Numbered from the stretch's first letter, positions 9,118-23,096 are shown. The stretch: DNA of 35,847 nucleotides from Patescibacteria group bacterium (GCA_024239055.1 JANBVJ010000001.1:259277-295123), one strand, 5' to 3'. Numbers and translations are program-made. Notes: generated by a model from the letters alone, not told the origin.

Positions 9118-9230
9118 CTGTAAGAGAGCTACCTACTTTCGCCCGTAAAGACTATCATCGGCCTTGAGAATTTTCACTTCCGAGTTCGGAATGGGATCGG
9201 GTGGAGCACTCTCAGCATAGCTCCCCTACG
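9118..9230 (-). rRNA. rrf: 5S rRNA (ends approximate)
   Basis: CCCATTCCGAACTCGGAAGTGAA, GCCGATGATAGT, GAAAGTAGG; flanking processing stem 9105-9244. Confidence 0.95.
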
Positions 9231-9552
9231 GTATCTATGATGAAATATCAAACGTCTGCTATAAATTGTTAGCTAATATATTGAAGGGAAGATCATTAGT
9301 ACTCCTCAGCTTAATGCGTTACCGCACTTACACTTAGAGCCTATCAACCTTGTAATCTTCAAGGGATCTAAAAGTTCTTATCTTGGAGTTGGCTTCGTGC
9401 TTAGATGCTTTCAGCACTTATCCATTCCCGACGTAGCTACTCAGCAATGCTCTTGGCAGAACAACTGATACACCAGAGGTCAGTTCATTCCGGTCCTCTC
9501 GTACTAGGAACAAATCTCCTCAAAACTCAACGCCTACGGTAGATAGGGACCA

Positions 9553-9596
<44 letters not shown>

Positions 9597-9657
9597 TTGG
9601 CGAACAGCCAAACCCTTGGAAGCTGCTTCACCTCCAGGATGTGATGAGCCGACATCG

Positions 9658-9955
9658 CTTTGTCGACATTTTGCCCTCGTTACCGAGGGGATCGGACTAT
9701 ATCTTCATCCTCTAAAATCTAAGAGGCGTCGGCGTATTAGCTCTACTTAATAAATAGAACTCCGATTCTTACGAATCAAGTCTCTACAGGGTTATAACTT
9801 AATATGCAACAAACTACATACGATTTTTCAATTAAGTTAAACTTCCCACGGTATTGTCCAGATGTATCTGGTAATACATTTCCTGGAGTTCACCGTTATA
9901 AGCCGAATTTTTCTTGATGACATTACTGTCATGGCGCCCCGATGTATATTACATA
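9658..9955 (-). mobile_element. group I intron (298 nt, no ORF) inserted after U2500 (E. coli numbering)
   Basis: Interrupts GGCACCU|CGAUGUCGGC. Exon ends in U and intron ends in G. IGS GGGGCGCC pairs with the 5' exon and ACATCG with the 3' exon. P3 TCGGC/GCCGA; core elements ACGGTGAA, AATACCGTG, GTAGAGACT, GAAGATATAGTCC. Confidence 0.93.
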
Positions 9956-11868
9956 AGGTGCCGAACAGGGCCGTAGATATGGACTCGCGGGCCCTACCAG
10001 CCTGTTATCCCCGGGGTAGCTTTTATCTGATAATCTCCGCGTTTTCTACGAAAACACGTCGGTTCACTAAGTTCTGGTTTCCCAACTGCTCGACATATCC
10101 GTCTCGCAGTAAAGCTAGCTTGTGCCTTTACACTATCTCCACCATTTCCATCGGCGGATAGCTAACCTTTAAACGCCTCCGTTACCTTTTAGGAGGCAAG
10201 CGCCCCACTTAAACTGTCCACCTCCCACTGTCATTCGCTGAGCGAAATTAGTGCTATCTTCGTAAAAGATGGGTGTTTCATTGATGGCTCCACTAAGACC
10301 GAAATCTTAGCTTCAAAGCCTCCCCACTACGCTACGCATCTAAAAAAATAGAACAATGAGAAGCTACAGTAAAGCTCCCGGGGTCTTTCCGTCTAGCCGC
10401 AGGTAACCGGCATCTTCACCGGTATTGCATTTTCACCGAGCACCTCCTCGAGACAGTTCTCCAGTCGTTACGCCTTTCATGCAGGCCTGAACTTACCAGG
10501 CAAGAGATTACGCTACTTTAACACGGTTATAGTTACCGCGGACGTTCACTGGGGCTTCGACCGCTCAGCCTTCAGATAAATCCAAAGACCGGCAGTTTTA
10601 ACACTCCAGCACTGGTCAGGCGTCAGCCCCTATACATACTTTTACAAGTTGAGCAGGGACCTGTGTTTTTGATAAACAGTCGCCAGAGAAACAGTCGCTG
10701 CGGCCCTAATATTAATTAGGGCAGTCCTTATCCCGAAGTTACGGACACTGATTTGCCGAGTTCCTTAAGGAGGTTTCACTCGTTCACCTTAGCATATTTG
10801 CGCTAACCTACCTGTGTTGGTTTGCGGTACGGACTCTTTAAGTTATACGTAATAGAGATTTTCTTGGAAGCGTGCTCGTTCGGATTCCTTCTCCCGTGGG
10901 AAAAGATTTCCACCACACTTGGATTGCTCCTTATGCAGCCGACAGAAATCCAATAATCTGCCCGAAGTACTACACTCCGTCATCTACTACAACACTTAAC
11001 GAGGGGCAGGAATATTAACCTGCTGTCCATCGCTTCAGACCTTTCGGTTCAAAAGCTTAGGCCCGCCTAACCCTTGGATGATCACCATTGCCAAGGAAAC
11101 CTTAGGTTTTCGGTGTGCAGGGCTCTCACCTGCATTGCGGTTACTCATGCCAACATTCTCACTTCTCATCGCTCCACAAGAGGTCACCCTCCAGCTTCAA
11201 CGCAATAAGAACGCTCTCCTACCACTCCTGAGATAAATCTCAGAAATCCTTATCTTCGGTATTTAACTTAAGCCCCGATAAATCTTCGGCGCAAAACCTC
11301 TGAACTAGTAAGCTGTTACGCACTTTTTAAAGGGTAGCTGCTTCTAAGCTAACCTCCTAGCTATCTGAGAAGTTTCACCTCCTTTCTTAGCACTGAGTTA
11401 AAATTTAGGGACCTTAGATGAAGGTCTGGGCTGTTTCCCTTTTGAACATGGAGCTTAGCCCCCACATTCTGACTGACTATGCTAGTCACTCTAGTATTCG
11501 GAGTTTGGTAAGAATACCTAGCTTGCGCCACGAGAATCCTTTCCAGTGCTCTACCCCCAGAGTGTTGTTCATAATCGCTAGCCCTAAAGCTATTTCGGAG
11601 AGAACCAGCTATTACCAAGCTCGATTAGCTTTTCACTTCTTACCACAGCTCATCCCAAGACGTTGAACGGTCTACGGGTTCGGACCTCCCTTTGCCTTTC
11701 GGTAAAGTTCATCCTGGCCATGGCAAGCTCGCTTGGCTTCGGGTCTTCTCCCATCGATTTTAATTCGCCCTATTAAGACTTGGTTTCCCTATGCCTTCGC
11801 GCCGTAAGCGCTTTAGCAACCGATGAGAAAAACTCGTTGGCTCGTTCTGCAAAAAGCACGCCGTCACC

Positions 11869-12054
11869 CCGCATCTTTTTACTCTTTAAGAAAATATAGT
11901 TGCTGAGAGGCATAGATGTTTCACTTCTAGGCCCAACTAGGATTTGACCAGATGAGCAAGCTCATCTCCCCTCAGCGTTTGGCTCCCCACGACTCAAATC
12001 AGGATCGTTTGGGGACCGCAACATAAACAAAACTTAAAGAACAAAAAGATACGG
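11869..12054 (-). other. intervening sequence or expansion in 23S helix 25 (~186 nt)
   Basis: Replaces the short H25 apex; long basal stem CCGTATCTTTTTGTTCTTTAAG/CTTAAAGAGTAAAAAGATGCGG with a branched top. Confidence 0.85.
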
Positions 12055-12115
12055 AGCTCCGACTCCTTGTAGGCAAGATGGTTTCAGGTACTATTTCACC
12101 GCCCTCAACGGGCTA

Positions 12116-12154
<39 letters not shown>

Positions 12155-12757
12155 AATATTAAGTATTTAGCCTTTCCCGGTAGAACGGGATGATTCCCAC
12201 GAGGCTTTCGTTTCTCGAGGTACTCAAGAATAATAACAAGGAGCATGAAAGAATTTTCAAATACGGGGCTATTACCCTCTATGGCGCCACTTTCCAGAGG
12301 CTTCTCTTAATCAACAATCAACTTGTGCTCTCCCTCAGGGGCATTCTTGTGCGTAAACACAAGAGCACTCCCGACGTTATTACCTTACAACCCCCTATAT
12401 TCCTAAAGAAATGATAGGGTTTGGGCTCTTCCCTTTTCGCTCGCCGCTACTAAGGGAATAAACAATTCGTTCTCTTTTCCTCCGCTTACTGAGATGTTTC
12501 ACTTCAGCGGGTTCGCTTCTGAGCTAACGCTCAGACGATGCTGGTTTCCCAGCAACAGGTTTCCCCATTCGGACATCTCCGGATCAAAGGTTGCTAGCCA
12601 CCTCCCCGAAGCTTTTCGCAGACACGCCACGTCCTTCATCGCCTTAATATTCCGAGGCATCCCCCATCTGCCTGTAACCTACAATATACTAACTAACAAT
12701 CGATAACATTCGTTCGATATTCTATATTTATACCTCTTTTAAGGTTCTCACGAGCAA

Positions 12758-12853
12758 CCAAAAAACCGCGTCAGAGCGGTTTCATTTCTTTCACAAAAGA
12801 ATATCAGTCCTTAACCGCTTTGATTACTTTTTTATAATCATCTTGTTACTCAT
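12758..12853 (-). promoter_or_regulatory. putative attenuator in the 23S leader (uORF MSNKMIIKK*, antiterminator, terminator)
   Basis: uORF 12853-12824. AGCGGTT (12819-12813) can pair with AACCGCT, which is also the 5' arm of the AAACCGC-6-GCGGTTTTTT hairpin. Confidence 0.45.
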
Positions 12854-12861
12854 GTAAGTTT

Positions 12862-12890
12862 AGTATATATGAGACAAAGAATGATGTCAA
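12862..12890 (-). promoter_or_regulatory. dedicated 23S-5S promoter
   Basis: TTGACA-17-TATACT. Confidence 0.85.
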
Positions 12891-12906
12891 GGATTAATAT
12901 TTATAG

Positions 12907-13602
12907 CTAATTTGTTATTAAAAATTCACTATTAAAAAGTTCATTTAAGAAGTAACCCGACCATTCTTTATATACATCAGCTTTATGGTTATCTGCGATA
13001 ATATGAAGCAATAATTCAATACATAATGGATTAATTTTTTGAATAATCTTAATATCTTCACCTACATCTTTTTTAAGGTTATATAAACAAAAATCTTTTG
13101 AGAAAGTATCATGCAATTTTACTATATTTTGTACAAATTCAATCTCAGATGCAATTAAATCTGAGCTTTCAAGAAGCTTTGGAACCAATTTCGCTCCTGC
13201 TTGTTCATGTCCCGTAGATTCTGTATTATTTTCTTCATTAATAACATGAAGATATGTGATCCCCTTCTCCTTTTCAACTCCTTTGCCAATATCATGAATA
13301 GCGCTTGCAAGTAATAACAAATCTCCCTTGATATACTTTCCATTTTCATCAACTAACTTATTAAAATATTTCTTATACTTATCTTTTAATTCTAAAGATG
13401 TAATAAAATTAAAATTCAAAAGTTCTTGCATATTAAAAAATACATCTTCCATATGTGAAAGAACATTTTCTGAATCATGATATTCATTATTTTCAATTAA
13501 AGAAGAGAGTCGCTGCATCTCAGGTAATTTAACAACACCATCTATTACTTGAGATAAATCAGAATTAATATCTGAATTTACAATTTCAAAGTTTTTTTTC
13601 AT
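12907..13602 (-). CDS. HD-domain protein (resembles the HD domain of CCA-adding enzymes); start reassigned to MKKNF
   Basis: YH..NVLSH, IHDIGK, GHEQAG, LHD; very AT-rich; TGTTATACT 7 nt upstream of ATG 13602. Confidence 0.8.
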   Translation of the reverse strand: MKKNFEIVNSDINSDLSQVIDGVVKLPEMQRLSSLIENNEYHDSENVLSHMEDVFFNMQELLNFNFITSLELKDKYKKYFNKLVDENGKYIKGDLLLLASAIHDIGKGVEKEKGITYLHVINEENNTESTGHEQAGAKLVPKLLESSDLIASEIEFVQNIVKLHDTFSKDFCLYNLKKDVGEDIKIIQKINPLCIELLLHIIADNHKADVYKEWSGYFLNELFNSEFLITN

Positions 13603-13735
13603 ATATTTAAGTATAACAAAAAATCTAATAAACCATATAGACTTCTTGACAAAATACAAATAATATGTAATGATATGAATCAGATTGTACTTATTGCACC
13701 TAAAAAACTAGTATGCACACGGAGATGATGCATCA

Positions 13736-14239
13736 ATGAATAAGAAAAAAATGGTCCTGATGGCGATTGTAGCCATTGCAGCTATTACTATTGGCACAGG
13801 AATTGCCTTTGCCAGTACACTGGTGACCGACTCGGTAACTATCGACGCCAAAGTTCAAGAGCCGATTGAGATTCTGAACTTCAATCACGAAAATCTTTTC
13901 TCTCCAGGAAAAGATTTCTGGCCTGGAAAGCCAGTAGTGCGATGGACTATGCAACTAAAAAACATAGCCGATGTGCCTTTCAGCGTATTGCCTCGCGTTA
14001 TGAAAAAAGATTCCGAAGGAATCGACATCGTCACGGAGACTTACGCAAACGGTGAGCTTGTCTTAACTCCTTGGGTAGGTACAAGTATTGCCCCAGGAGC
14101 GACAATAACACTCGTTGTTGAAGTCCGCATCAGTCCAACAAGTTCTCCAGGAACAATTGGAGATCTCGTTCTCCAAATAGACCGCTACCTCTCGCCTCCT
14201 GAAGTAGAGGTCGAAGAGAACAAGGGACAGCTCGGCTAG
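13736..14239 (+). CDS. hypothetical exported protein
   Basis: Basic then hydrophobic signal peptide ending AFA; beta-rich body; followed by a terminator. Confidence 0.75.
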   Translation: MNKKKMVLMAIVAIAAITIGTGIAFASTLVTDSVTIDAKVQEPIEILNFNHENLFSPGKDFWPGKPVVRWTMQLKNIADVPFSVLPRVMKKDSEGIDIVTETYANGELVLTPWVGTSIAPGATITLVVEVRISPTSSPGTIGDLVLQIDRYLSPPEVEVEENKGQLG

Positions 14240-14260
14240 TCTGACCAAAAAAATCGAAAT

Positions 14261-14343
14261 CCCCAGAGTATCTACATAGGTATGTCTGGGGTGTTTTTTA
14301 TATAACAAAACTCTGTAGGCATATCACCTACAGAGCATGTTTT
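14261..14343. terminator. pair of convergent terminators
   Basis: CCCCAGA..TCTGGGG followed by a T tract (+); CTCTGTAGG/CCTACAGAG with a T tract on the minus strand. Confidence 0.7.
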
Positions 14344-14361
14344 AGAACAATATTTATTGCT

Positions 14362-15039
14362 CTACCCTCTGAGTTTTCTAATCATATCCTGCAAGAGCAT
14401 AGCTGCCGTATCTTTTCCTCCCAAGCCGAATGCTATTCCACCTGAGATTACAATTAAGGCAACAAGTCCGGTAAAGAGTGTTTGAAGTAATGCTGTAGCT
14501 ACTCCAAGTTGAGTTAACATTGCAATAATTGCAAATATCCAAATGGACCACTTTACCACAGCTCCAACTACTCCTCCGTGAGAAAACTGTGCTGATTCTA
14601 CTGTAGCTCTCATCACCTTCTCTACGATATCGGCAATGATTACTGCTACCGCAAAAATAAGAGCGGCAACAATCACGTTAGGCAAGTAAGCCAATACACT
14701 CTGAAGGAAGATTGCAAATTGGTCTAAACCGAGAATTTCTACTGAAGCAGCTAAGAATACAATAACTAAGACCCATTTTACAATAGATCCAATAAATCCT
14801 GCTGGATCTATTTTCAACTCAGCCTTGTCTAATGCTGACTTCCAGTTTCCCCGTTCAAATATTTGGTTAAAGCGTAGGCGTTTTAATATGTCGGCGATCA
14901 ACTTTCCGAATCCAGCGGAAATTAACCAACCGATAGTAAATACGAGTAGTGCTCCCACCAACTCAGGAATGAAGTTTAAGAAACTCCCCCAGAGATCAAA
15001 CAGGGCGTTCACGGTGACCGCGTACCAGTCAAGTAACAT
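14362..15039 (-). CDS. CmpX/MscS-type TM-helix-repeat membrane protein
   Basis: FIPELVGALL and YLPNVIVAAL repeats, GIAFGLGGKD. Confidence 0.85.
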   Translation of the reverse strand: MLLDWYAVTVNALFDLWGSFLNFIPELVGALLVFTIGWLISAGFGKLIADILKRLRFNQIFERGNWKSALDKAELKIDPAGFIGSIVKWVLVIVFLAASVEILGLDQFAIFLQSVLAYLPNVIVAALIFAVAVIIADIVEKVMRATVESAQFSHGGVVGAVVKWSIWIFAIIAMLTQLGVATALLQTLFTGLVALIVISGGIAFGLGGKDTAAMLLQDMIRKLRG

Positions 15040-15150
15040 ATGTGTTTTGATTATATTTCACTTGTATTAAACCGACCTTTCTGCAAGAGTACCTTTAAAA
15101 TGGTCTCTCAGCATTTCTTCATTATACCAGAATAAAGCAGGTCAAATACC

Positions 15151-15429
15151 TTACTTGTGGATAACTTTTGCGAGGCCCAAAACACTATCTTTGTTAACCC
15201 AACCAAATACTCTACTATCAAGACTTTCTTCCTTATTATCCCCTTTTAACCAATACTTCTTATCTATTTTTTTAATAACGCGCTTAAGTAAAAAACGAGA
15301 AGAAATGGGGTGTCTTATAACAGCAACATCTCCCTCTTTTAAACCAATAAACTTGTTCACGAATACAAAGTCCCCTTCTTTGCAGTAGGGCTCCATGCTT
15401 CGTCCTTGAACTCGAAAGAATAAAATCAT
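15151..15429 (-). CDS. sodX: NiSOD maturation protease (S26 family)
   Basis: GRSMEP catalytic Ser, LKRV Lys, GDN..S.DSR.FG; translationally coupled to sodN. Confidence 0.88.
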   Translation of the reverse strand: MILFFRVQGRSMEPYCKEGDFVFVNKFIGLKEGDVAVIRHPISSRFLLKRVIKKIDKKYWLKGDNKEESLDSRVFGWVNKDSVLGLAKVIHK

Positions 15430-15875
15430 TACTTTGACGAAGCCTTCTCAAACATCTCAGCTATATTCTCTACAGCAGAAAGTAATCCCTTTGCCGTATC
15501 CATACTTACCTCCTGCTTTATTTTTGAACATAACTTAGTAGCTGACCAAAATGTATCATGCAAATCAGGAAATATTTCCAAATGTTCTTTATTAAAGAAA
15601 TCTGTCCAAAGAATAAGTAACTGTTCCTTACAAATCTGAGCATGCTCTTCTTTTGTAGCAACATAGCGAGACATGGAATTTTCATACTCCATCACCACTT
15701 TCTTATCTTTCCAGTCTGGAATCTCTAGTTCTTCAATTAACTCAACCATACGGACAACCGTACGGGCTGCTGTGTGAGCTGGTTCTGAGGTATAAATGCC
15801 ACACGGAATATCACAATGCGCATACACTGTATTAAATGGAATAAGCTTATGGATGAAAGAAATAAAACGATACAT
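15429..15875 (-). CDS. sodN: nickel superoxide dismutase precursor
   Basis: Ni-hook HCDIPCGIY after a leader; LILWTDFF. Confidence 0.95.
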   Translation of the reverse strand: MYRFISFIHKLIPFNTVYAHCDIPCGIYTSEPAHTAARTVVRMVELIEELEIPDWKDKKVVMEYENSMSRYVATKEEHAQICKEQLLILWTDFFNKEHLEIFPDLHDTFWSATKLCSKIKQEVSMDTAKGLLSAVENIAEMFEKASSK

Positions 15876-15887
15876 ACTATTTATATA

Positions 15888-16448
15888 TTACTTATATGTT
15901 GGATGATGTTCCTCACTATGCTTTGTTTTTGCCGCATGACGAGCCATTGCATACAACAAAGAAGACAATCTATTTAAGTAAGCTAAGATTGAAGGCTCCA
16001 ACTTTTTCCTGTGTCGCCTATCTAACTTTACCATAACAACCTCAGCTCTACGAACTACAGAGCGAGCAAAGTCCAACCAAGAGGAAGCTTCATTTGAACC
16101 TGCAATAATAAATCCTTTCTCTGGCTTTACCTTCTTTTCAAATCCATCAATGAGTTTTTCAATTTCCTTAACCTTTTTTAAAGAAAATGGAGGAGCTGTA
16201 AACTTCCTTATCATTAACACTCCTACATGTGCCTGAATAATAAATAGATTCTCCTGTACCTGCTCTAAAATATCTTTATGTCCTTTAGGCAAACTCTGAG
16301 TCTTTACCAATCCCAATAGACTATTAACCTCATCCAAAAATCCAACAGCCTCAATCTCCAAAGAAGTTTTATGTATCTTCTTTCCTTCAATCTCAGAAAC
16401 ACCCTTATCCCCTTTTCCTGTATAAAATAGTCTCTTTAATAAGCTCAT
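15888..16448 (-). CDS. PduO-type ATP:cob(I)alamin adenosyltransferase family protein
   Basis: YTGKGDKG, DEVNS, ARSVVRRAE, YLNRLSS. Confidence 0.9.
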   Translation of the reverse strand: MSLLKRLFYTGKGDKGVSEIEGKKIHKTSLEIEAVGFLDEVNSLLGLVKTQSLPKGHKDILEQVQENLFIIQAHVGVLMIRKFTAPPFSLKKVKEIEKLIDGFEKKVKPEKGFIIAGSNEASSWLDFARSVVRRAEVVMVKLDRRHRKKLEPSILAYLNRLSSLLYAMARHAAKTKHSEEHHPTYK

Positions 16449-16476
16449 ATGATATTAACTTTCTCCACCAGTTTTT

Positions 16477-16962
16477 TTATTTCCCTTGAATTCCTATCAG
16501 TTCTACTTCAAAGTACAATGTTGAATTTGGTGGGATCGCTCCAGGTATTCCTCCAGCTCCATATGCAAGTTCAGGTGCAATAGTAAGATTTCTTACGCCT
16601 CCAATCTGCATTCCAGCTACCCCTTCATCCCAACCCTGAATCACTTGTCCTACTCCCAAAGTAAATGTAAATGGCGTATCCTTTGCTCTTGAAGAATCAA
16701 ATGTAGTTCCATTCTCAAACGTACCAACATAGTGTACCGTAACTTGGTCTCCTGCTTCTGCAGTTGCTCCCTCACCTACTTTTATATCTTCAATTTTAAG
16801 TTTTGTTTCTTGTTCCATATTTTCTTGTGGATTTTCTATAACGACTTGCTGATCTTCTTCTGACTGTTGAGAGGAAAAGAATATAAATCCTCCAACAATA
16901 ACAACAGCTACAATAACTAGTATTAAAACCATACTCAATCCCCTCTCTTTAATATGATGCAT
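16477..16962 (-). CDS. membrane-anchored FKBP-type peptidyl-prolyl isomerase
   Basis: VHYVG, FDSS, VIQGWDEG, IPPNSTL.FEVEL. Confidence 0.95.
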   Translation of the reverse strand: MHHIKERGLSMVLILVIVAVVIVGGFIFFSSQQSEEDQQVVIENPQENMEQETKLKIEDIKVGEGATAEAGDQVTVHYVGTFENGTTFDSSRAKDTPFTFTLGVGQVIQGWDEGVAGMQIGGVRNLTIAPELAYGAGGIPGAIPPNSTLYFEVELIGIQGK

Positions 16963-16999
16963 AGAATAATATGTAATTAATAATTCGTATCTATACTAT

Positions 17000-17122
17000 A
17001 TTCTACCAAAAAACCGCCTTAAAGGCGATCTTTTGCGAAATGTGGACTACATCGGATTCAATTGGAACCAAATAATTCAGGAATTAGGAACCTGGCAGCA
17101 GCTCAGCTCCAATCTTCTCTAA
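17000..17122. repeat. cassette-junction repeat 1
   Basis: TACCAAAAAACCGCC-n5-GGCGAT..GTGGACTACATCGGATTCAATTGGAACCA; plus-strand frame 17042-17122 reads VDYIGFNWNQIIQELGTWQQLSSNLL*. Confidence 0.9.
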
Positions 17123-17650
17123 AAGTAACGGAAAAGTCTGAAATCCTGACTGTGCCTGAAAATGTTCTCCTCCTTTTACTAAAGTTACGTTAACCCCTAG
17201 ATTCTTTGCAAGTTCTTCCGCTCTCCCTAAGGGGATATAAGGGTCGTTATCGGAATGAATTACGGAAAAATGCTTACAATTTTGTTTTATCTTTTTCCAA
17301 TCAAAATCTCTTTCAGCAAAATCATCAAGATTTGGCTCCCCTTCCGCTTTAAGATGTCCTGAAAATCCTGCAACCAAGAAAGTTGCCCGAGCACTTACCT
17401 CCCACTGATTCAAAACATTTAGTATAAATGGTACTCCAAGACTATGACCCACAATAATGGAATCTGATAGGTGTTCTTTCATTGGACGAAGAGTATCCAA
17501 CCAATTCTGAAGAGTCTGTTTATCTTCTTCAATAGGAAACTGTGGTAAGAAAACCTGCAATTCTTTTTCTTCCAGTTTTTCTTTCAACCACGGATACCAA
17601 TGAGTATCTTTACTTCCAGAAGAACCGTGAATAATAAATGCTGTTCTCAT
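17084..17650 (-). CDS. YdeN/RBBP9-family serine hydrolase
   Basis: IIHG..W.PWLK, GHSLG, SDNDPYI, GEHF. Confidence 0.9.
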   Translation of the reverse strand: MRTAFIIHGSSGSKDTHWYPWLKEKLEEKELQVFLPQFPIEEDKQTLQNWLDTLRPMKEHLSDSIIVGHSLGVPFILNVLNQWEVSARATFLVAGFSGHLKAEGEPNLDDFAERDFDWKKIKQNCKHFSVIHSDNDPYIPLGRAEELAKNLGVNVTLVKGGEHFQAQSGFQTFPLLLEKIGAELLPGS

Positions 17651-17662
17651 ACACTTTATGAT

Positions 17663-18238
17663 TCAGTACTCTTCATTTTCTACTTCTTTTGGAAATAATA
17701 ATTGAAATGGATAACCTACATAGTTCCTGTTTATTTTCCCGCAGCCAATATCTTTAAGAAATGCAACCATTTCTTCTGTAATCTTTTTAGGATCTACATT
17801 TTCATCCTTACCTTTGTACTCAATTTCTACAAAATCTCCAAGTCCTTTTATCGTATCTAATGCAATCTCATAATCTTCATGCATCCATGTTTTCCTTAAT
17901 TTATCAACTATAACGATTGATTTAAAATTAAGAACGTCTAGTATCTTCTTTAATTTACTTAAATCCCCTATCTCCGTCTCATATTCGTCAGCATAGTTGC
18001 TTTTTCCATCTTCTTCATAGTGCCAGTTCTTATAATTTATTGAGTATGTACCGCCTGAATCTCTTAGCCGTATCCACTCTTTTATTGGACGAACCTCAAT
18101 AAAATTACGATGAGCCGGAGAAAAATACTCATCTACTTGATGTTTTTCCGATTGAAAGTCAGCATTCTTTTCCAAAAACTCAATGAGTGGTTTACTGTTC
18201 TCAATCCTAACTTGTATTTCAATTTCAATATCAGACAT
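17663..18238 (-). CDS. CYTH-domain (class IV adenylate cyclase-like) protein
   Basis: EIEIQ, Q.DEYF, IRLR, LGDFVEIE. Confidence 0.9.
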   Translation of the reverse strand: MSDIEIEIQVRIENSKPLIEFLEKNADFQSEKHQVDEYFSPAHRNFIEVRPIKEWIRLRDSGGTYSINYKNWHYEEDGKSNYADEYETEIGDLSKLKKILDVLNFKSIVIVDKLRKTWMHEDYEIALDTIKGLGDFVEIEYKGKDENVDPKKITEEMVAFLKDIGCGKINRNYVGYPFQLLFPKEVENEEY

Positions 18239-18245
18239 ATATCTT

Positions 18246-18373
18246 ACTATACCAAAAAACCGCCCTTATGGCGATATTTTGTTTTTGTGGACTACATCGG
18301 ATTTAGTTGGAACCAGATTATAGAGGAATTGTTGGCTTGGAAGGGTTACGCAGACTTAGAGAACAGGACCTAA
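18246..18373. repeat. cassette-junction repeat 2
   Basis: Same module; frame 18287-18373 reads VDYIGFSWNQIIEELLAWKGYADLENRT*. Confidence 0.9.
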
Positions 18374-18393
18374 ATCTTAAACACATTACTGAC

Positions 18394-19017
18394 TCACAAA
18401 TTATCTAATACTGAGGGTAATTCAGATAACCCATCATCCCCACTAAAATGCCCTTTGCCAGTTTCAATTATAATTTTTGCATTGAGTTCCTTCTCAAATA
18501 ACTCTTTATTCTCTTCAAATGGAACAAGAGGATCGTCTTCCGAAAAGATACAAGTGAAGCTTTCTGCGGCGTTCTTTATTCTTCTAAAATCTATAGAAGT
18601 TTCTATCCAGGGTCTTGCAATAGATTTAGATTCTTCATCTGACATCGCTTCTAAAGTAAGAGTCATCCAAGGAGCAACAAGAACGACACTCCCTACTTTA
18701 CTATACGATAAAGATTTTTCTCTATATTTCTTCCCCACAGCCTCAAAATATGGGAGCTTCTGACTAATGGATTCTAAATATCGTAGCACAGTCTGACAAC
18801 CTACGCTGTGTCCAACAAAATGTGTATTTTCATCTGGGTACTTTATTTCATCTTTAAGTAACCCAACCCAGTCCACAATAGTTGGGTTCTCTGGATGGGG
18901 CATTGTAAAAATAGATACCTCAAAATCTCTACTCTCTAATTCCTGTTTTAGCCAAGGAAACCATCCCTCTTCTGGATAGCCATCCCACCCGTGAACAACA
19001 TAAACTCTTTGCTTCAT
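18394..19017 (-). CDS. YdeN/RBBP9-family serine hydrolase (second homolog); start reassigned to MKQRV
   Basis: VHGW..WFPWLK, GHSVG, SEDDPLV, GHF. Confidence 0.9.
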   Translation of the reverse strand: MKQRVYVVHGWDGYPEEGWFPWLKQELESRDFEVSIFTMPHPENPTIVDWVGLLKDEIKYPDENTHFVGHSVGCQTVLRYLESISQKLPYFEAVGKKYREKSLSYSKVGSVVLVAPWMTLTLEAMSDEESKSIARPWIETSIDFRRIKNAAESFTCIFSEDDPLVPFEENKELFEKELNAKIIIETGKGHFSGDDGLSELPSVLDNL

Positions 19018-19025
19018 ATAATCAC

Positions 19026-19133
19026 ACTGTACCAAAAAATCGCCTGCTTGGCGATTCTCTGGTGTTTGTGACCAAATCGGAATCTGTTGGAACCAATTAG
19101 TAAAATCTCTTAAAGAATACGATGAACTAATGT
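19026..19133. repeat. cassette-junction repeat 3 (1-nt deletion in the core)
   Basis: TACCAAAAAATCGCC-n5-GGCGAT..GTGACCAAATCGGAATCTGTTGGAACCA; frame reads DQIGICWNQLVKSLKEYDEL. Confidence 0.85.
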
Positions 19134-19487
19134 CTATTTCTTCACAATGTTGTTCTCAGAATCCTTATGGTCATATTTCACAAGGATTTCATCCTTTACC
19201 ATATTGAATGCCTCCTCGACATCAACATCAAGTTGATTTGCGAGACGGCAGAGTCCAAAAAACAAATCTCCAATACCATCTACAAAAATATCTTTATTCT
19301 GTTTAACAAATTGAATCCTTTCCTCCTCTGATTTATATCTCAGGTGCTGTGACATTTCTATAAGTTCCTCGTGTAAATGATCGAACTTATCAACATTAGG
19401 AATATCTTTCCATGCGTTACGTTCAGCAAAAAACTGCACAAGAGCCTGTGATTCTTTCATTGTCTCTATTGTTTTCTTTACATCCAT
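19134..19487 (-). CDS. MazG-like all-alpha NTP pyrophosphohydrolase
   Basis: FFAERNAW, HLHEELIE, GIGDL...LANQLDVD. Confidence 0.75.
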   Translation of the reverse strand: MDVKKTIETMKESQALVQFFAERNAWKDIPNVDKFDHLHEELIEMSQHLRYKSEEERIQFVKQNKDIFVDGIGDLFFGLCRLANQLDVDVEEAFNMVKDEILVKYDHKDSENNIVKK

Positions 19488-19509
19488 AAAACTATCTTAC
19501 CAAAAAACT

Positions 19510-19929
19510 TTACTCGCCAAGAAATCTTTTAAAAGCCTGATACTCTTCCATATCACAAAAGTCACTTCTCTTGAGTCGATCATCTACAGATGCCCAAAAG
19601 TAGCTGCTGTGCTCTGGAGAAAGTTTGATACTCCCTGATATGTACTTCCCCTCATATACAATAACAAACACTGGGACTTTACGATTAGCAGATTTACGAT
19701 AGTGAGCAGCAATGGGTTTCCCAATTTTATACTTCACTTTACTCCCCAATTCTTCTTTTACCTCCCGGATCAATATTTTCTCAAGCGGAATATCACCTTC
19801 AATGTTATCAATACGGCCACCCGGTAAATCCAAATGGTCGTCTTTTGTATTTCTCAAAAATAAAAACTTCTTATCTCTTTCCAAAAGTATTTTTAAGGAG
19901 ACCTGGTACTTTTCAAAATCACGGTTCAT
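19510..19929 (-). CDS. NUDIX hydrolase (start 19929 or 19938)
   Basis: LPGGRI..REVKEELG Nudix box; LSPEH. Confidence 0.9.
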   Translation of the reverse strand: MNRDFEKYQVSLKILLERDKKFLFLRNTKDDHLDLPGGRIDNIEGDIPLEKILIREVKEELGSKVKYKIGKPIAAHYRKSANRKVPVFVIVYEGKYISGSIKLSPEHSSYFWASVDDRLKRSDFCDMEEYQAFKRFLGE

Positions 19930-19936
19930 CTTTATC

Positions 19937-20061
19937 ATTCTACCAAAAAACCGCCATTATGGCGATATTTTGTTTTTGTGGACCAAATCGGATTCAGTTG
20001 GAACCAGATTATTGCAGAGCTACAACTCTTCCAAGATCTTGGTTCTTTCACTTATACATAA
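19937..20061. repeat. cassette-junction repeat 4
   Basis: Same module; frame 19978-20061 reads VDQIGFSWNQIIAELQLFQDLGSFTYT*. Confidence 0.9.
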
Positions 20062-20117
20062 ATTACCTTATCAAAAAAGCAAAGGAATCTTTCTTTTCGC
20101 ATTGGAGTGATAGAATT

Positions 20118-20429
20118 TTAAAAAGAGTCAATCATACTTACTCCAAAAGAAACAGGAACAATATTCCTTGGTGGATCAGGAATACTTGGATTTTCTGGAG
20201 CTGTTTTTGGTGTTCGAGAAACTGGAGAAAGAGCAAATCTATCCCTTATTATAAATTTATTCATATCTTTATCATTAGCTATAACTCCTCGAAAATTTCC
20301 TTCGGAATCCCAAACTGTATTACCGTCAACCCAACCTAAATAAACGCCATCTCTTGAAAACACAAAACCACCCTCGATAAACCCCAAGTAATTTCCGTTT
20401 GTTTTGAATATAAATATTATATTACCCAT
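20118..20429 (-). CDS. small beta-repeat protein (4-fold beta-flower-like)
   Basis: Repeated F/W-x-x-x-G-x-Y/F-L-G-F/W units with a Pro-rich tail; overlaps the protease gene. Confidence 0.65.
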   Translation of the reverse strand: MGNIIFIFKTNGNYLGFIEGGFVFSRDGVYLGWVDGNTVWDSEGNFRGVIANDKDMNKFIIRDRFALSPVSRTPKTAPENPSIPDPPRNIVPVSFGVSMIDSF

Positions 20430-21105
20430 TCTTTTCTTCTTCTAAAGTTTTATGCTCAGGAATATAAGAAGCTGGTACTGCATATCCAACGCCAAGTTGC
20501 AGATTTCTTATCAGCGCGGTGTAAATTTCGACAACATCTACTCCGTGTAGGGATAATGCACCAAACTCCATATCTTCTACCTTTTTTAAAATTTTACCCC
20601 TCTCTCTTCCTGTCGCATTAACAACACCTATTACCTCGCCATCTGAATTCATTAAAGGACATCCACTGTTTCCAAGATTAACCGTGCCATCGATAAGATA
20701 TGTAACTACTCCTACTGCATCTTTAGTTATAGCAGAGAGTATGCCTTGATGAGTTATAGGAATTTTAGAATTTAGTGGATACCCAGAAAATACCACTGGC
20801 ATTCCTTCTTTAACTACCGAAACATCCGCAAGTATAAGTGGTTCTATTGTATCATCTTCAAATTTTAAAAGGGCAAGATCGTGCTCATCATCTCGAACTA
20901 CTACTTTTGCATTAATATATTCCCCTTCTGGAAACTTAATGAGAAGAGACTCAGCTCCTCTAACTACGTGATTACAAGTAACTAAAACTCCTTTTTTAGA
21001 AAATACAAAACCTGTACCAGTTCCAGAACTTTTTCCTTTTTTGTTTATAGTAACAACGAGTGCAATACTTGACCTTGTCTTATTTACGGCATTGGAGCAA
21101 TCCAT
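20422..21105 (-). CDS. trypsin-like serine protease (no signal peptide or PDZ domain)
   Basis: TCNHV, DLALL and GNSG catalytic triad. Confidence 0.92.
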   Translation of the reverse strand: MDCSNAVNKTRSSIALVVTINKKGKSSGTGTGFVFSKKGVLVTCNHVVRGAESLLIKFPEGEYINAKVVVRDDEHDLALLKFEDDTIEPLILADVSVVKEGMPVVFSGYPLNSKIPITHQGILSAITKDAVGVVTYLIDGTVNLGNSGCPLMNSDGEVIGVVNATGRERGKILKKVEDMEFGALSLHGVDVVEIYTALIRNLQLGVGYAVPASYIPEHKTLEEEKNG

Positions 21106-21166
21106 ATTTTATACTAACTCATAGTATAATATTATTCAACAATTTCCTCTGTCTATTATAAAAGAG

Positions 21167-21200
21167 ATCATACCAAAAAACCGCCCTAATGGCGATCTTT
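21167..21200 (-). terminator. terminator/promoter module after tRNA-Ala (fifth copy of the repeat arm)
   Basis: Minus strand ATCGCC-ATTAG-GGCGGTTTTTTGGTATGAT. Confidence 0.85.
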
Positions 21201-21208
21201 TGTATTTG

Positions 21209-21282
21209 TGGACCTGATCGGATTCGAACCGATGACCCCTTCATTGCAAATGAAGTGCTCTAGCCAGCTGAGCTACAGGCCC
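21209..21282 (-). tRNA. tRNA-Ala(TGC), CCA not encoded
   Basis: Cloverleaf with G3:U70; anticodon arm CTTCA-TTTGCAA-TGAAG. Confidence 0.97.
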
Positions 21283-21340
21283 CTTCTCTCACATCGTGCG
21301 CACTTTGTGAGACGTGGCCGTACTTTTCACACCAGTACGG

Positions 21341-21417
21341 TGGTGGGCGTGGAAGGACTCGAACCTTCGACCTCATTCTTATCAGGAATGCGCTCTAACC
21401 AGCTGAGCTACACGCCC
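21341..21417 (-). tRNA. tRNA-Ile(GAT)
   Basis: GGGCGTG acceptor stem, CTGATAA loop, encoded CCA. Confidence 0.97.
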
Positions 21418-21436
21418 CAAAAAAGAACTATAAGGG

Positions 21437-21475
21437 ATTATACAAGAAAACAAACCCTTCGTAAAGGGTTGGTTT
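21437..21475 (-). terminator. terminator after 16S, overlapping a TATAAT box for the tRNAs
   Basis: Minus strand AACCCTT-TACG-AAGGGTTTGTTTTCTT, then GTATAAT at 21443-21437. Confidence 0.7.
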
Positions 21476-21606
21476 CCGTTGATTCCTAAAAGTTGTTTCA
21501 ATTCTAGCTCCATAAAATGGAGGGTCAAGACATTTAGGCACTTGACCATGCCATCTGAATCAGTTTAAGAATTCTCATAAACCGATTCGGGTCGACAATC
21601 CAAAAA

Positions 21607-23096
<1,490 letters not shown>

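Follow-up and report, generated by a model that had tools for sequence, protein, structure and literature searches.

The window, meaning the whole stretch of DNA analysed here, consists of 35,847 nucleotides (nt) from a Patescibacteria group bacterium (GCA_024239055.1, JANBVJ010000001.1:259277-295123). The genome it belongs to (G000) is 1.08 Mb in 47 contigs, with 37.7% G+C, and is 97% complete. A split ribosomal RNA (rRNA) operon spans window positions 9120-23096. The 16S gene (21607-23096), tRNA-Ile and tRNA-Ala(TGC) (21208-21282) are found on the minus strand, and approximately 8.5 kb of protein genes separate tRNA-Ala from the 23S (9276-12687) and 5S genes. The tRNA-proximal 4 kb of this insert contain an approximately 86-base repeat that carries a short open reading frame (ORF) and is present in four plus-strand copies at 17042, 18287, 19067 and 19978 (c1 to c4). 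These small ORFs are probably detached 3′ ends of large serine recombinase genes. The target tRNA and the four junctions are as follows.

21208..21282, minus strand: tRNA-Ala(TGC) of the rRNA operon, putative target gene; its antisense reads GTGGAC CTG ATCGGATTC GAACCGAT.
17042..17122, plus strand: junction c1, with core GTGGAC, putative element-side (P) half-site TACATCGGATTCAATTGGAACCAAAT and putative orphaned integrase tail of 26 codons + TAA (pattern scan, translation, profile match to the C-terminus of large serine recombinases).
18287..18373, plus strand: junction c2, with core, putative P half-site and putative orphaned tail of 28 codons + TAA; homology to the metagenome copy L160 ends at 18286.
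19067..19207, plus strand: junction c3, degenerate, with a core deletion (GTGACC), no start, a more diverged putative tail and 46 open codons.
19978..20061, plus strand: junction c4, with core, putative P half-site and putative orphaned tail of 27 codons + TAA.

The pattern ATCGGATTCAGTTGGAACCA, with 3 or fewer mismatches allowed, matches at 17051, 18296, 19076 and 19987, all on the plus strand, and gives no match in 100 shuffles. A scan of the whole 1.08-Mb genome shows no copies of the repeat beyond the four in the window, and tblastn of the peptides against the same genome also yields these four copies only (next best E-value = 0.18). No tail copies were detected in the older part of the insert, positions 12700-16990. 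The left half of the repeat is a terminator hairpin; read in the minus sense, an extended -10 box and an almost leaderless ATG come after it. The right half begins with GTGGAC, the antisense of the last bases of the tRNA. Translation from the core gives VDYIGFNWNQIIQELGTWQQLSSNLL for c1, VDYIGFSWNQIIEELLAWKGYADLENRT for c2 and VDQIGFSWNQIIAELQLFQDLGSFTYT for c4, each followed by a stop codon; c3 reads (C)DQIGICWNQLVKSLKEYDEL and continues over its 46 codons without a nearby stop. The core of c3 displays a 1-base deletion, GTGACC instead of GTGGACC, that leaves no in-frame GTG, and no start codon is found anywhere from the upstream stop to D2. The original prediction had listed four copies with their translations, and pattern scan and translation recover all of them; for c3 the reading is confirmed and the in-frame GTG is not. 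It had also read the same frame in the tRNA gene itself, where the antisense peptide is indeed (M/V)DLIGFEPMT (ORF 21208..21489).

The identity of the peptide comes from protein profile searches. A HMMER profile of 31 copies searched against 1.84 billion representative sequences gives 65 proteins at E-value ≤ 1e-3, all of 30-212 amino acids (aa). In two of the 20 that were fetched, P0035 and P0031, recombinase-type sequence (...FPEGIPF..GFGTAKL..LN...) is found upstream of the motif. P0035 matches 87 longer proteins, mostly of 505-550 aa, that display PF00239 Resolvase and mostly PF13408 Zn_ribbon_recom as well, and it constitutes a C-terminal piece of those recombinases. Where these relatives are named, the annotation is 'recombinase family protein [Patescibacteria group bacterium]' or 'site-specific DNA recombinase'; by domain content they are large serine recombinases. 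Ten of them were fetched, of which seven end in the tail motif (e.g. ..VVDSLRISWNQIIEELMVWQQLQADIKLALTA) and three end in a tRNA-antisense peptide instead (..VDLRGIEPRP.., ..VVDRAGLEPATF.. and ..VAPPGIEPE..). Counted from the V, the tail is 27-34 residues long in intact recombinases and 26-28 in the window. With hhalign, a profile of six tail copies falls on columns 507-531 of the 543 columns of seven full-length recombinases (probability = 96.2%, E-value = 2e-9). Judged from these sequence matches, the motif V-D-x-x-(G/R)-F-S-W-N-Q-I-I-x-E-L-x-x-W-x-x-L constitutes the C-terminal tail of Patescibacteria large serine recombinases of 520-545 aa.

The same enzymes are found next to tRNA genes. 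A search of the order with P0066 gives matches at E-value ≤ 1e-20 in 65 of the 400 other genomes, G000 not included. In all eight close genomic homologues (44-73% identity to P0066) the ORF overlaps a tRNA gene on the opposite strand, which is Ala-GGC in four cases, Arg-TCG in two and Lys-TTT in two. Because the genes end either in the tail or in tRNA antisense, and eight of eight run into a tRNA, the element attachment site (attP) is placed within the integrase gene, at its 3′ end. Proteins of the intact and the integrated kind have ...KSQVVD in common and differ right after VD, which puts the crossover at or beside GTGGAC. The end of homology between G000 and L160, the occurrence of GTGGACTTCGTGAGATTC and the tails 5′ of integrases in four genomes, all described below, are consistent with this crossover. 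The proposal that the peptides are recombinase C-terminal tails with attP in the recombinase's own gene, made in the original prediction after the SSV1 and Mx8 integrases, is therefore supported by the seven endings and the hhalign match, and the profile search leads to recombinase C-termini as its split-gene model foresaw; the tyrosine type of enzyme is not supported, as PF00239 denotes a serine recombinase.

We estimate at roughly 85% the probability that the micro-ORFs are the detached last 25-30 codons of large serine recombinase (serine integrase) genes. In this family attP would lie within the last approximately 30 codons of the integrase gene. The V-D codons (GTGGAC) would imitate the very last bases at the 3′ end of the target tRNA and would hold or adjoin the crossover, the next approximately 25 bases would form the element-side half-site, and the remainder would encode a conserved C-terminal helix, WNQIIxELxxWxxL. 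Upon integration at the tRNA 3′ end the body of the integrase would stay by the tRNA and gain a tRNA-antisense tail, and the true tail would move to the far junction, behind the sequence formerly downstream of the tRNA, here a terminator. The window copies would then be the attR-type junctions of a stack of four units that occupies the 16S-23S spacer behind tRNA-Ala(TGC). The units would have arrived one after another by serine-recombinase integration, with the integrase either lost later or acting in trans. Protein-like conservation would be inherited from integrase genes that function in donor elements and would not be upheld by translation in place. These observations point to a family of large serine recombinases that targets tRNA 3′ ends and carries attP in its own gene, such that integration rewrites the C-terminus of the enzyme.

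No PF00239 match is found among the 26 ORFs of the window. As the recombinase is present in relatives and absent here, the window appears to contain junction remnants and not a complete element. In relatives, the integrase-tRNA junction is present at eight of eight loci, and four genomes (G056, G393, G017 and G104) have a tail on the strand and contig of the integrase, 7-18 kb to its 5′ side. The window has attR-type junctions only.

Conservation of the frame is of the coding type. Frame statistics were calculated on the four window copies, L160 (a metagenome copy from a relative, 91-92% identical where the two share sequence) and L158 (a metagenome copy from another organism). Of the six frames, plus frame 0 alone is free of stops in all six copies over 24 codons. 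In c1, c2, c4, L160 and L158 it has 38 synonymously differing codon pairs, compared with 6 to 19 in the other five frames. In 20000 column shuffles, 38 synonymous pairs are reached 27 times and a stop-free frame 783 times, and both together never; these figures are only rough because the shuffle disregards neighbour effects and the copies are related. Most of the synonymous excess is situated past the approximately 25-base half-site. Over nt 33-66, that is, beyond the half-site and the first 11 codons, the observed count is reached in 24 of 20000 shuffles. The synonymous variants listed in the original prediction, CAA/CAG, ATA/ATT/ATC, GAA/GAG and TTA/TTG/CTA, are all present, and its claim of coding-level conservation beyond chance stands. 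A distant copy in genome G017 has CTC ATC where others have ATT ATA, yet retains the peptide WNQLIREL. Since distant copies alter the DNA and retain the residues, a pure DNA or promoter motif is excluded. The first tail residues co-vary with the target tRNA (VDxIGF here, VSLQGF for tRNA-Arg), and the wobble pattern sits in the later tail codons, which are free of site constraint. In the integrase-tail reading, coding-type conservation without a promoter, with one copy even lacking a start, is the footprint of a gene that functioned elsewhere.

This pattern also bears on a reading in which the repeat is purely a DNA site, such as the core and arm sites of a tyrosine integrase, an integron attC or an Xer/dif-like site, and looks protein-like only by accident. 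The first 10 codons do overlap a tRNA-like imperfect palindrome (ATCGG..CCAGAT), and the genome encodes one tyrosine recombinase, 24 kb outside the window. Synonymous excess continues past the palindrome, however, the G017 copy changes its DNA and keeps its residues, the motif matches the C-terminus of serine recombinases, and folding displays no conserved hairpins other than the terminator; such a reading is highly improbable. Several related candidates were rejected. The antisense of Q-I-I gives TATAAT in several copies and could be taken for a promoter, but the G017 copy loses TATAAT and keeps the peptide. No Rfam family is found at the junctions, and an RNA element was discarded because, in addition, c2, c3 and L158 have lost the pairing of a small T-arm-like hairpin. 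An integron was rejected since the only tyrosine recombinase is the one 24 kb outside the window and the folds show terminator hairpins only.

A weak domain match suggests another origin, as remnants of the N-terminal domain of TnpB (IS605/IS1341 OrfB). Five of 31 copies match PF12323 HTH_OrfB_IS605 at profile positions 24-43 (best E-value = 2.9e-4, 20.7 bits), none of them reaching the 21-bit cut-off of Pfam. The genome shows no PF07282 match, PF12323 is seen elsewhere in it only at E-value = 0.1, the HMMER search gives no match above 212 aa, and the recombinase match is far stronger. With PF12323 only below threshold and PF07282 not found in the genome, the TnpB origin was rejected, and it is the least credible of the readings considered.

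The half-sites agree with the proposed tRNA target. The element half-site equals the tRNA half plus 5 bases inserted before GAACC, and it co-varies with the target tRNA. In G000, ATCGGATTC[AGTTG]GAACC stands against ATCGGATTC GAACC in the tRNA; in G017, AAGGATTT[GATTG]GAACC stands against AAGGAGTC GAACC in tRNA-Arg. The same 5-base pattern is found in G333, G310 and G298. For the LI integrase of Listeria, the zinc-ribbon motif is described as 5 bp nearer to the centre in attB, the host attachment site, than in attP (PMC3783163, Fig. 6 legend). A sequence pattern that corresponds to a 5-bp outward shift of the distal motif in the attP half-site relative to attB is present in G000, G017, G333 and G310/G298. 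Halves of attP and attB may be readable directly from genomes, which would be useful for integrase prospecting. The GGCGAT of the terminator might also be a mirror half-site to the ATCGG of the tRNA (CGAT-N20-ATCG), but no weight is placed on this.

The remaining proposal of the original prediction was that the ORFs are stand-alone, GTG-initiated peptides of 26-28 aa selected in place as a directionality factor, inhibitor or toxin. Such peptides would account for a frame that is open and rich in synonymous change, for the 28 of 37 copies that have GTG or ATG as first codon and a length of 22-35 codons, and for the presence of the motif within short predicted ORFs in the 65 database matches. 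The GTG, however, is part of GTGGAC, which mimics the tRNA end, and codes for an internal valine in intact recombinases, and the ORF lengths match natural integrase tails. In the window, the GTG is preceded at 11-13 bases by the end of a terminator hairpin flanked by T-runs on either side, and nothing like a GGAGG ribosome-binding sequence is visible. c3 has no start codon, and four of the matches listed in other genomes (G116, G372, G129 and G355) contain in-frame stops. The frame 5′ of the GTG is not kept, as shown by a spacing of 38 bases in c1 and 37 in c2. Expression of these peptides in place is accordingly not supported by the data, and we consider it unlikely.

The left flank of each junction, and the region just past the tRNA, carries the same module of terminator and promoter.

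16992..17035, minus strand: rho-independent terminator + extended -10 promoter module (TACCAAAAAACCGCC N5 GGCGAT) left of c1, putative host-side (B′) flank (repeat family, fold).
18238..18281, minus strand: terminator/promoter module left of c2; ATG of the CYTH gene at 18238 (repeat family, fold).
19018..19061, minus strand: terminator/promoter module left of c3 (repeat family, fold).
19929..19972, minus strand: terminator/promoter module left of c4; ATG of the NUDIX gene at 19938 (repeat family, fold).
21159..21202, minus strand: terminator/promoter module directly downstream of tRNA-Ala (repeat family, fold).

The last of these, together with the end of tRNA-Ala, resembles an attB that is unoccupied. 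When the 104-base repeat is compared with the genomes of the order by BLAST, matches are found in 221 of 401, often many in each. Among the matches listed outside G000, which were not individually inspected, the alignment ends by approximately query position 53, with two reaching 68-69; the part covered is the terminator/promoter half. The module is generic in the order. TACCAAAAAACCGCC N5 GGCGAT also occurs at 19493-19508. The module continues as TGGTAnnnT with an ATG approximately 7 bases further on, which implies leaderless mRNAs.

Several observations weigh against an origin of the micro-ORFs as detached integrase 3′ ends. G000 shows no PF00239 match genome-wide and no P0066 match, and none of the units carries the integrase body that the model places by the tRNA. 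At every junction, and at the tRNA itself, a terminator lies 11-13 bases from the core, which a simple scheme of repeated attP x attB integration would not yield; the sites formed beside the tRNA (attL) are normally no substrate for serine integrases. In G056 the tail has the core GTGGAG, and the tRNA end beside its integrase has GTGGAC; this tail may come from another event. A GTG is found at codon 1 in 26 of 37 copies, and this would also fit a start codon. The first, word-based search with a 42-aa alignment returned 145 longer-protein candidates, none at E-value ≤ 10, and a comparison of this alignment with proteins of similar length found nothing. The 5-base offset of the half-sites is a pattern in sequence only. 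Two routes would bring the detached tails into line with the present arrangement. One possible route is that the integrases were deleted and a generic terminator was restored at the fixed distance of 11-13 bases. The other, to which we give less than even odds, is that the units are integrase-less cassettes moved in trans.

The second route leads to a different view of the array, in which the junctions are working sites and not dead scars, and integrase-less cassettes are moved by the serine recombinase of a visiting element on an integron-like capture platform. The units are short (780-1245 bp), and each is complete, with its own promoter, one or two genes, a half-site with tail, and a terminator. 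The terminator-to-core spacing of 11-13 bases is kept in all 7 junctions read. Similar short arrays lie behind tRNA-Ala in G333 and G298, both of which lack a P0066 match at E-value ≤ 1e-20, and a close relative has other units at the tRNA-proximal end. On the other side, the junctions are built as attR (host flank + P half), and attR is stated not to be recombined by serine integrases without a directionality factor (PMC3783163). No circle, empty site or joint is seen among the contigs of the probable source sample, although contigs cannot show rare forms, and c3 is visibly decayed. Among sequencing runs, this sample is the only one listed that contains the stretch, and no RNA run is among them. 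A platform of this kind is possible but distinctly less likely than remnants of integration. In its wider form, tRNA genes, here the tRNA-Ala of the rRNA operon, would be landing pads of a Patescibacteria serine-recombinase cassette system, in which the terminator doubles as the host half-site and a recombinase acting in trans inserts, stacks and perhaps reshuffles the units. This is put forward tentatively; if true, the system would be functionally analogous to the integron but rest on a different enzyme. In addition, the tail swap on integration may serve as a built-in directionality switch.

The cargo of the four units consists of small genes on the minus strand.

20118..21105, minus strand: unit A, trypsin-like peptidase (20422-21105) and beta-flower protein (20118-20429) (ORFs, Pfam).
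19134..19938, minus strand: unit B, NUDIX hydrolase (19510-19938) and a 117-aa protein with no Pfam match above the cut-off (19134-19487) (ORFs, Pfam).
18394..19035, minus strand: unit C, Ser_hydrolase PF06821, 213 aa (ORFs, Pfam).
17084..18238, minus strand: unit D, CYTH protein (17663-18238) and a second Ser_hydrolase (17084-17650) (ORFs, Pfam).

Besides these units, the insert between tRNA-Ala and 23S encodes HD-domain, MscS-like, S26 peptidase, Ni-SOD, cobalamin adenosyltransferase and FKBP proteins, and a group I intron is situated within the 23S gene at 9673-9976. The 16S-23S spacer of these bacteria is a possible entry point for accessory genes. The 91-92% homology between G000 and L160 ends one base short of the GTGGAC of c2. 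L160 carries other units next to the same tRNA-Ala, and the deeper CYTH gene is common to both. Different tRNA-proximal units combined with a shared deeper gene point to turnover at the tRNA-proximal end. Ser_hydrolase (PF06821) cargo is represented by three different genes over the two related genomes (window 17084-17650 and 18394-19035; L160 2673-3236), which suggests that this function was acquired repeatedly at the hot spot.

Copies of the tail are found in other genomes of the order. A six-frame search of 400 other genomes with a profile of six peptides gives matches at E-value ≤ 0.1 in 47 genomes. At E-value < 1e-3 there are 27 matches in 23 of the 400, all within short open frames. With 31 further loci included, the total is 37 copies. 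The consensus is V-D-F-V-R-F-S-W-N-Q-I-I-Q-E-L-x-x-W-Q-Q-L-K, followed by a variable end of 3-15 residues. Elsewhere, as in the window, the copies are antisense and just 3′ of a neighbouring gene; several follow the rRNA-operon tRNA-Ala of other families (G310, G333 and G298) or are near other tRNAs. Five genomes from three families each contain the sequence GTGGACTTCGTGAGATTC once, and it thus travels with the element. A profile of approximately 28 residues could serve as a simple marker with which to map past insertions in ultra-small Patescibacteria genomes.

Paired tails, 0.4-1 kb apart, are found at L179 (G333:C10, 1703-3476), L180 (G298:C10, 1805-2441) and L178 (G159:C3, 1905-2698). Those of G333 and G298 lie directly behind tRNA-Ala(TGC), and in G298 the first tail begins approximately 50 bases past the tRNA, which would make it a gene-less unit. 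Two of the short database proteins, P0062 (212 aa) and P0033 (130 aa), have the tail motif joined to unrelated upstream sequence (phosphoribosyltransferase-like and membrane protein, respectively). In both, the gene call has probably been extended across a junction.

Scans with the DNA pattern are nearly empty, because the DNA diverges faster than the peptide. At the class level, 400 other genomes give no match. At the family level (36 genomes), matches are found in G025 only and are duplicated 5′ regions of glyS, unrelated to the junctions. Among genome contigs there are 130 matches over 125 loci (119 from the contig scan), with the flanking context of a junction only at the four loci derived from the window; three other loci pass a loose GTGGAC/GTGAC filter but have flanks unlike a junction. 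Viral contigs gave 0 matches and then 1, in a giant-virus bin, which was not inspected.

Large serine integrases such as those of A118/LI, Bxb1 and phiC31, with short attP and attB sites, are the nearest known enzymes, and the relatives of the tail's parent likewise combine Resolvase and zinc-ribbon domains. The attP/attB relation described for the LI integrase (PMC3783163) is mirrored here too, with the element half-site equal to the target half with the motif 5 bases outward. In contrast to those systems, attP here lies in the 3′ coding end of the integrase itself and integration swaps the protein tail, tRNA 3′ ends are the targets, and short units lacking an integrase are stacked at one site. 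The literature searched, which covered few subscription journals, contained no report of a large serine recombinase that carries attP at the 3′ end of its own gene and acts at Patescibacteria tRNA genes. To our knowledge, no serine integrase has been described that combines attP in its own 3′ end, tRNA targets and stacked integrase-less units.

The attachment sites of Myxococcus phage Mx8 (intX) and of Sulfolobus virus SSV1 are said to lie within the integrase ORF, so that integration into a tRNA gene alters or splits the integrase and leaves the displaced part at the other end. Both enzymes are reportedly tyrosine recombinases, and the SSV1 gene is reportedly split near its N-terminus. The relatives described here share the location of attP inside the integrase ORF, but the enzyme is of the PF00239 serine type. 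In the filamentous Ralstonia phages phiRSM1 and phiRSM3 a serine recombinase targets the 3′ end of tRNA-Ser; the enzyme is of the small resolvase/invertase type, and attP is located between two genes, without mention of cassette stacks (PMC4471427).

Repeated integration at one tRNA gene is known from the tycheposons of Prochlorococcus, where older elements are pushed outward and partial tRNA repeats, degenerate elements and cargo are left behind (bioRxiv 10.1101/2020.12.28.424599). Tycheposons and the window are alike in having decayed elements and cargo at one tRNA gene in a streamlined genome. Islander-type islands in tRNA and tmRNA genes (PMC4383910) are likewise linked to tRNAs and repeated integration. 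Tyrosine recombinases are used by 910 of 937 tycheposon elements, and the repeats are tRNA fragments (bioRxiv 10.1101/2020.12.28.424599). Compared with both, the repeat in the window consists mostly of the putative element half-site and integrase tail, the units are short, at 0.8-1.2 kb, and the location is within an rRNA operon. With integrons the window shares one-orientation arrays of short, mostly promoter-dependent accessory units separated by a repeated site, and similar cargo (NUDIX, hydrolases). It differs from them in lacking IntI and attI, in junctions that do not fold as attC hairpins, in a site that appears to derive from a serine recombinase gene, and in the promoter and terminator carried by every unit.

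Two minor observations were made in the course of the scans. In G025 (L005 C36, L006 C5), the first approximately 60 bases of the glycyl-tRNA synthetase gene, with the upstream region, occur twice, and the second copy stands before an unrelated small ORF. In the source sample of the window, a 185-base contig (depth 4) covers positions 18299-18331 and presents a junction variant with 3 differences, which is probably from another strain or organism.

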